Below are positions 15,157-15,717 of a stretch of 64,000 nt of DNA, one piece after another. The notes beneath the pieces are model-generated. The model ran no database searches. It worked only from the letters and a program-made list of their open reading frames with translations, and was not told the DNA's origin. How positions within the stretch are numbered: position 1 is the first letter of the stretch; every line of letters begins with the position of its first letter. The position numbers were made by a program, and so were the translations under genes. The stretch is from a virus, in the IMG/VR virus record IMGVR_UViG_3300036857_000203, positions 8,436 to 72,435 of that record. One strand, given 5' to 3'.

Positions 15157-15717
15157 AAGCCTGCCAAGCCCGGCCAGGACTGAACGCACCAAGCCAAGCC
15201 CGGCCCTGCCTTGCCTCGCCTCGCCAAGCCCTAGCTAGCCGGGCCAGGACTGCCACGCCAAGCCAAGCCCTGTCAGGTCCTGGCGTGCCGTGCCTTGCCG
15301 TGCCGTGCCTGCCGGGCCAAGCCGTGCCTGTCCGAGGCCTGCCGCGTCTTGCCGGGCCTAGCCCTGCCGGGCCTGCCGCGACATGCCGCGTCTTGTCAGG
15401 TCGGGACATGCCGGGCCATACCGCGCCCGCCTTGCCTCAACTGCCGCGACATGCCGAGCCTGGACCTGCCATGTCCAGCCGTCCGAGCCGGGCCAATGCC
15501 ACGCCTGCCGAGCCAAGCCAGCGTCGGGCCAAGGCATGCCGTGACATGTCATCCACGTAGATGACGTGCCTGCCATGCCCCGCCTTGCCGCGCACCGCCG
15601 GGCCGAGCCTCGCCGGGCCAAGCCCCGCCGCACCGGGCCTGCCGGGCCGCGCCATGCCGAGCCACGTCCCACCGGGACGCGCCACGCCAAGCCGCGCCGA
15701 GCCTGCGTTACCGTGCC
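15157..15717 (-). ncRNA. GGY-NN pentamer array, 8 units (putative guide-RNA array)
   Basis: About 100 pentamers; 4-nt phase breaks (GGCA on minus strand) at plus positions 15162, 15251, 15310, 15374, 15442, 15506, 15571, 15640 and 15704 (variant); directly downstream of the RAMP-like operon. Confidence 0.85.

Follow-up and report, generated by a model that had tools for sequence, protein, structure and literature searches.

The locus described here lies in a 64,000-nucleotide stretch of DNA, referred to below as the window, from a virus contig of 72,435 bases that is rated complete. On the minus strand, a gene encoding a 272-residue protein and a gene encoding a 176-residue partner form an operon. 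Directly downstream of these two genes, starting 9 nt past the stop of the partner gene, runs an array of pentamers, and on the far side of the operon a Cro/YdaS-like gene points the other way (Table 1). A scan of 14900-17400 for promoters and terminators returned one site of each kind, in no excess over shuffled sequence and not usefully placed. Contigs of three soil DNA runs, one of which is possibly the source of the sequence, are identical to the stretch wherever they cover it, and where covered they contain no variants of the array or of the target site; no RNA run is among those listed as containing the stretch. Two overlapping genes sit on the opposite strand just upstream of the array: one for an HNH-AP2 endonuclease (12946-13425), which runs into the start of the other, for a ResIII/DEAD helicase (13377-15032).

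Table 1. Features of the locus, in coordinates of the window.
Feature	Coordinates	Strand	Basis or remark
vipr, 272-aa Cas7/Csm3-like RAMP	16253..17071	minus	ORF and predicted fold
Partner gene (vap-like), 176 aa	15726..16256	minus	ORF; 4-nt overlap with the vipr stop
Predicted staggered vrRNA array of GGYNN pentamers	15162..15717	minus	Register reset by 4-nt steps
Predicted vrRNA unit 1	15640..15703	minus	Twelve GGYNN pentamers (three with degenerate heads), then a 4-nt GGCA step
Near-self target site, vipr codons 100-111, AAVDTPGATRAE	16740..16774	minus	20/24 guide letters
Divergent Cro/YdaS-like HTH gene	17112..17357	plus	PF15943, 2.5e-11; phrog_35, 1.4e-8

The closest known counterpart of this arrangement is VIPR (Viral Interference Programmable Repeat), which has been characterized in phage SUSP1 and in a Pseudomonas fulva prophage (10.64898/2026.04.26.720920, 10.64898/2026.04.26.720927). 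According to the accessible text of these preprints, a VIPR system combines Vipr, a RAMP protein of small size, with an accessory gene (vap) and with vrRNAs built of 9-16 YNNGG repeats (10.64898/2026.04.26.720920). The NN dinucleotides pair with DNA and one target base, usually the wobble base, is skipped per repeat (10.64898/2026.04.26.720920); the resulting R-loop is gapped, with unwinding proceeding 3' to 5' along the guide (10.64898/2026.04.26.720927). Seven VIPR types are distinguished, some of which possess staggered arrays whose successive vrRNAs overlap by one nucleotide (10.64898/2026.04.26.720920). Experimental demonstration of the skip rule is limited to the SUSP1 and P. fulva systems, in which Vipr is about 20 kDa and the guides carry a 3' tail (10.64898/2026.04.26.720920).

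Throughout 15162-15717 the plus strand is composed of NNGCC pentamers, the minus strand reading GGYNN. Successive GCC triplets are spaced by 5 nt in 48 of 77 cases and by 4 nt in 7 of 77, and the array contains nine 4-nt steps (eight GGCA and one GGCG), each followed immediately by a GGY that resets the register. The GGCA steps with GGY at +4 stand at 15643, 15574, 15509, 15470, 15377, 15343, 15313 and 15165, and the GGCG step at 15431. Units are 59-70 nt long and abut directly, with 12 pentamers in unit 1 and 13 in unit 2, and the GGCA step of unit 1 overlaps the next unit by one base. This one-nucleotide overlap of successive guides corresponds to the staggered VIPR arrays as they are worded in the legend of fig. 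S18 (10.64898/2026.04.26.720920), the comparison being with the text of that legend. Judged from the letters, unit boundaries probably fall at the GGCA steps, where a transcript might also be processed.

Three unit 1 pentamers (15664-15678) depart from the constant GCC/GGC triplet, their RNA-strand heads being GTC, GGT and GAC. By eye, the RNA strand of these degenerate pentamers (15664-15680) makes up a short inverted repeat whose 6-bp stem encloses a 3-nt loop; in unit 3 (15541-15570), likewise by eye, palindromic stretches replace regular pentamers. Two stand-alone GGYNN units lie elsewhere in the window, both far from the main array. One, on the minus strand at 6556-6629, comprises 14 pentamers and a GGCA step; the other, on the plus strand at 25117-25176, comprises 12 pentamers and sits between two minus-strand genes, to both of which it would be antisense. 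No Rfam family was found at E ≤ 1 in 14500-17500.

The 272-residue protein belongs to no Pfam family and matches phrog_4652, a group of unknown function, at 4e-12. Its structural model, built with 61 homologues (mean pLDDT 89.6), displays the RRM core, glycine-rich loop and thumb of a RAMP fold, in agreement with the first-pass annotation, which had called the gene a RAMP from its sequence. Foldseek returned 38 matches to this model at E ≤ 0.001, and those listed are all Cas7-family RAMPs, namely Csm3, type VII Cas7, Cas7-11 and similar chains, with an identity of 8-14% between these Csm3/Cas7 subunits and the 272-residue protein. A CRISPR-Cas type III system was considered and rejected, as one protein's fold is what the locus shares with such systems: Tandem Repeats Finder reports only pentamer arrays at the locus and no repeat-spacer array, and none of the 8 neighboring ORFs scanned contains a Cas family. 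Unlike Csm3/Cas7 effectors, Vipr here has neither Cas10 nor other subunits among the neighboring ORFs scanned, and the guide information resides in the dinucleotides of a pentamer repeat.

The 176-residue partner has no Pfam or PHROG family and four homologues besides itself. Its predicted structure is a helical, low-confidence model (pLDDT 70.5, pTM 0.36), with which a Foldseek search gave no match at E ≤ 0.001.

Homologues of the 272-residue protein are accompanied by similar arrays well beyond this phage. In 80 IMG/VR loci fetched by protein alignment, with arrays called by a simple density rule, GGYNN arrays occur in 66, all co-oriented with the homologue; parsing of these viral loci (L013-L092) gave 180 units, 179 of them on the homologue's strand. 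Isolate and metagenome-assembled genomes contributed 46 further homologue loci from many phyla, at no more than 44% identity (L093-L138; for example Bradyrhizobium, Paraburkholderia, Microvirga, Sphingobium, Nocardioides, Anaerolineae and Planctomycetes). A tblastn search of the phage collection with the 272-residue protein recovered only five Gordonia phage records and one cyanophage record, SUSP1 being absent. The same NNGCC/GGCNN grammar with 4-nt steps is found in Cluster F mycobacteriophages (Cheoctovirus: Saal, Donkeykong and 25 other records), where the array adjoins a homologue, Saal gp51, that is 30% identical over 189 aligned positions (pairwise E 2e-13). In these phages of an actinobacterial host the order is the reverse of that found here, with the array upstream of the gene. 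The Cluster F arrays, with 27 records matched, occupy 3000-3255 of the Saal locus (L002) and 3000-3350 of the Donkeykong locus (L001), and the Donkeykong array is annotated, probably wrongly, as a protein-coding gene, gp48.

Given the GGYNN grammar, the Cas7-family fold and the general linkage between protein and array, we assigned the locus to the VIPR systems with staggered arrays. As in the SUSP1 and P. fulva systems, a phage-borne two-gene operon encodes a RAMP protein and a putative accessory protein, with no cas genes in the 8 neighboring ORFs scanned, and tandem GGY/NN (YNNGG) pentamers, in the range of 9-16 per guide, lie beside vipr on the same strand; for unit 1, the match to the target likewise skips one base per repeat, the wobble base. 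The differences from those two systems are that Vipr here has 272 residues instead of a mass of about 20 kDa, and that the directly abutting units of the array show no conserved 3' tail or pseudoknot.

Unit 1 matches the phage's own vipr. With one base skipped per repeat, it agrees with 16740-16774 at 20 of 24 letters (9 of 12 dinucleotides). Read as its reverse complement, 16739-16774 encodes AAVDTPGATRAE in the frame of the 272-aa ORF, and the skipped base falls at the wobble position. The three degenerate-head pentamers take part in this match, their dinucleotides still agreeing with the Thr-Pro-Gly codons of the target. The polarity is such that the vrRNA would pair with the coding (sense) strand of vipr. 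The first-pass annotation had proposed this match by hand, and its dinucleotide series (the first two letters of the twelve plus-strand pentamers 15644-15703), its vipr peptide and both counts proved exact when re-derived from the coordinates. The span it gave, 15640-15707, does contain the unit and extends over a 4-nt step at each end, the unit proper being 15640-15703.

No other site in the 64-kb window, on either strand, scores 18 or more, and the runner-up is one site at 17. When the order of the guide dinucleotides was shuffled, 3 of 3000 shuffles gave a score of 20 somewhere in the window, on average 0.001 sites of this kind per shuffle. The shuffled guides thus fall short of the real one, a check that the first-pass annotation had itself proposed, and its uniform-base estimate of about 3e-9 per site (about 4e-4 per window) lies within roughly 2.5-fold of the shuffle result. 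With zero or two skipped bases the best score in the window is 17, and with three skipped bases the only 24/24 match is the array itself.

An alignment of 120 homologues with the query (121 sequences) places the matched codons in a conserved motif, which reads (A/V)AIDTPGATKAE in the nearest relatives. At two positions these relatives carry I in place of the phage's V and K in place of its R, which are the residues spelled by the guide. The own allele mismatches three guide dinucleotides, and the I-to-V and K-to-R differences together cost three letters. An exact search with the last eleven dinucleotides of unit 1 (22 specified letters) found 9 contigs in a metagenome collection and none in IMG/VR. 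In all 9 the pattern falls at the orthologous codons of a vipr homologue that is 65% identical to that of the phage, and nowhere else. Each of these rival sites matches 22 of 22 letters over 11 repeats and 23 of 24 overall, the sole mismatch lying in the 3'-most guide dinucleotide, which calls for a GGx codon that all 121 aligned sequences lack there. The site occurs in only two variants among the 9 contigs, which may derive from very few populations.

At protein level, six of the 120 homologues are predicted to beat the self score of 20 (P0001-P0004, P0011 and P0021), three of them at 23 and three at up to 22. Of the other homologues, twelve reach 21 and sixteen reach 20, these being the best case for each row, whereas the self score is that of actual codons. 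In 135 fetched loci, with the phage's own record and two phage records set aside, the guide usually reaches 17-19 at best, and the best 40 rows all decode to the same motif. The self match is thus about what any member of the family would show, and one clade stands apart. No match of 22 or more occurs among the 46 isolate and metagenome-assembled homologue loci.

In a maximum-likelihood tree of 41 rows, the query plus its 40 best homologues, the query groups with P0001 (support 100/98) as sister to P0002-P0005 (99/93), the clade that carries the matched alleles. K is the state in 37 of the 41 rows, and within the group formed by the query and its sister clade only the query and P0001 have R; P0001, 77% identical, carries I and R at the two positions. 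Within this clade, V at residue 102 is confined to the query. These states reconstruct the self-mismatching V and R as changes derived in the phage's own lineage. Such derived mismatches fit escape from a guide of this kind, and they fit drift too.

The rival contigs carry guides of their own. In six of them (L009 at 735-925 on the minus strand, and L003, L005, L008, L010 and L011) the array is short, with one or two units of 74 nt. Many of the pentamer heads are GAC, GTC or GAT, degenerate heads being used freely, and GGCAC-GGCA is the shared ending of four out of five distinct units; past the L009 array come a hairpin and a T-run resembling a terminator. Reciprocal targeting was not detected, as three distinct rival-contig guides score 17-18 of 28 in the window, within the range of shuffled guides. 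Of the 9 rival contigs, 7 have a homologue of the partner gene beside their vipr homologue, and the other two break off within the latter. L009 has only the vap-vipr-cro cassette in common with the window. Its Cro-like gene (2310-2531) is 74% identical over 74 residues to that at 17112-17357, the rest of L009 being unrelated. The cassette of cro, vipr, vap and array seems to move as a module.

Targeting of vipr does not emerge as a habit of the family as a whole. When 186 parsed guides were compared with 90 vipr genes, 7 beat all 20 of their own shuffles, where about 9 would be expected by chance, and only unit 1 stands clear. Apart from unit 1, matches with at most two mismatches amount to two at 18 of 20, both outside vipr, and shuffled guides give none.

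The reading favored by the anatomy of the locus, the predicted fold, the match statistics and the better-matching homologues is that the locus is a VIPR system whose first unit is aimed at the vipr gene of rival phages, the self match being an echo of the conserved motif. We assign this reading a probability of nearly four in five. Since the own allele, at 20 of 24, is matched no better than many distant members of the family, its match is most likely such an echo. The first-pass annotation had anticipated a rival's copy of the system as the target, bearing I for V and K for R. The sister-clade alleles carry exactly those residues, at 23 of 24 against 20 of 24 for self, and both the 9 metagenome sites and the six homologues predicted at 22-23 exceed the self score.

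That annotation had also offered weak autoregulation, in which unit 1 would bind its own vipr (20 of 24) and feed back on the expression of vipr, vap and the array, the match to relatives being incidental or the guide serving both purposes. The self site does sit inside the operon that makes the guide, its 83% match exceeds the threshold of at least 80% used for natural targets (10.64898/2026.04.26.720920), and the characterized VIPR system silences from either strand (10.64898/2026.04.26.720920). Weighing against autoregulation, sister-clade alleles are better matched (23 versus 20), the self mismatches are changes derived in the phage's own lineage, and the self score is equaled by many distant homologues. 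In the clades tested in one preprint no own-contig matches at 80% or above occur (10.64898/2026.04.26.720920), and in another the self match lies consistently below non-self scores, which is read there as avoidance of autoimmunity (10.64898/2026.10.15.759431). On this balance autoregulation appears unlikely.

The polarity of unit 1, with the vrRNA pairing to the sense strand, would equally suit an antisense RNA acting on vipr mRNA, whether the phage's own or a rival's, and among solved structures the protein comes nearest in fold to RNA-targeting Csm3/Cas7 subunits of type III systems. The characterized VIPR complexes bind double-stranded DNA and have targets on both strands (10.64898/2026.04.26.720920, 10.64898/2026.04.26.720927), and we hold action at the RNA level to be improbable. 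As for the possibility that a GC-rich dinucleotide series resembles a common Ala/Gly/Pro/Thr-rich peptide by chance, the guide dinucleotides are indeed those of the commonest codons in a 63% G+C genome, and several units and all frames were available to pick from when the match was first noticed. Yet composition-preserving shuffles reach 20 of 24 in the window only at the rate given above, the match falls in the gene next to the array, and 9 of 9 exact metagenome matches occur at the same homologue codons and none elsewhere, which makes coincidence very hard to credit.

Under the preferred reading, that of a guide aimed at rivals, vipr, the partner gene and the staggered array (15717-15162) would be transcribed on the minus strand. 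By analogy with the characterized systems, Vipr protomers would bind each GGY triplet of the guide and present the NN dinucleotides to double-stranded DNA, one target base being skipped per repeat, and transcription of the target would be silenced. Unit 1 would be directed at vipr codons 100-111 as they stand in the sister clade of related phages. Because the skipped base is the wobble position, a synonymous change could not provide escape from unit 1, and the four mismatched letters of the phage's own allele would spare it.

Parts of this scheme are already known from other VIPR families. As far as the accessible text of the three 2026 preprints goes, these parts are the skip rule and anti-vipr guides with a lower self match. 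Pairing of the NN dinucleotides with the wobble base skipped, deduced in the first-pass annotation from the letters, is the published VIPR rule (10.64898/2026.04.26.720920), so that interpretation was right and not new. Phage-borne solo vrRNAs that target the vipr of relatives have been described in VIPR-null phages of the SUSP1 family (10.64898/2026.10.15.759431). For guides against other phages' vrRNAs the same source reports self matches below non-self matches, taken as a sign that autoimmunity is avoided (10.64898/2026.10.15.759431).

On the preferred reading, unit 1 resembles the solo vrRNAs in being a phage-borne guide against the vipr coding sequence of competing phages, and it resembles the guides against other phages' vrRNAs in that its self match is lower than its rival match (10.64898/2026.10.15.759431). 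It differs from the solo vrRNAs in being the first array unit of a phage that keeps its own vipr, self and target being homologues, so that discrimination would rest on three extra mismatched letters. Its site is a conserved mid-gene motif, not early or late codons, and the protein family and the soil habitat are different ones. What is particular to the present case is thus the combination of a different Vipr family, a tail-less staggered array, a soil phage and a first-unit guide in a phage that retains vipr.

More speculatively, the guide and the phage's own resistant allele may constitute a linked pair, in which the VIPR of the closest relatives is disarmed through a vipr motif that synonymous change cannot alter and the phage's lineage has itself escaped by two conservative replacements, K-to-R and then I-to-V. 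We regard this extension as possible, with the odds against it. If it is true, anti-vipr guides drive amino-acid change at the motif, and the difference between 20 of 24 and 23 of 24 marks a VIPR threshold between self and non-self that lies above the 80% used so far.

The naturally matched sites in homologous genes, self at 20 of 24 and rival at 23 of 24, could be used to measure mismatch tolerance and self/non-self discrimination. That the match was first seen in raw sequence alone indicates that the gapped code can be recovered from it. Conflict of VIPR against VIPR, so far reported for enterobacterial and Pseudomonas phages, would on the preferred reading extend to soil phages whose Vipr family is a distant one and whose arrays are staggered.
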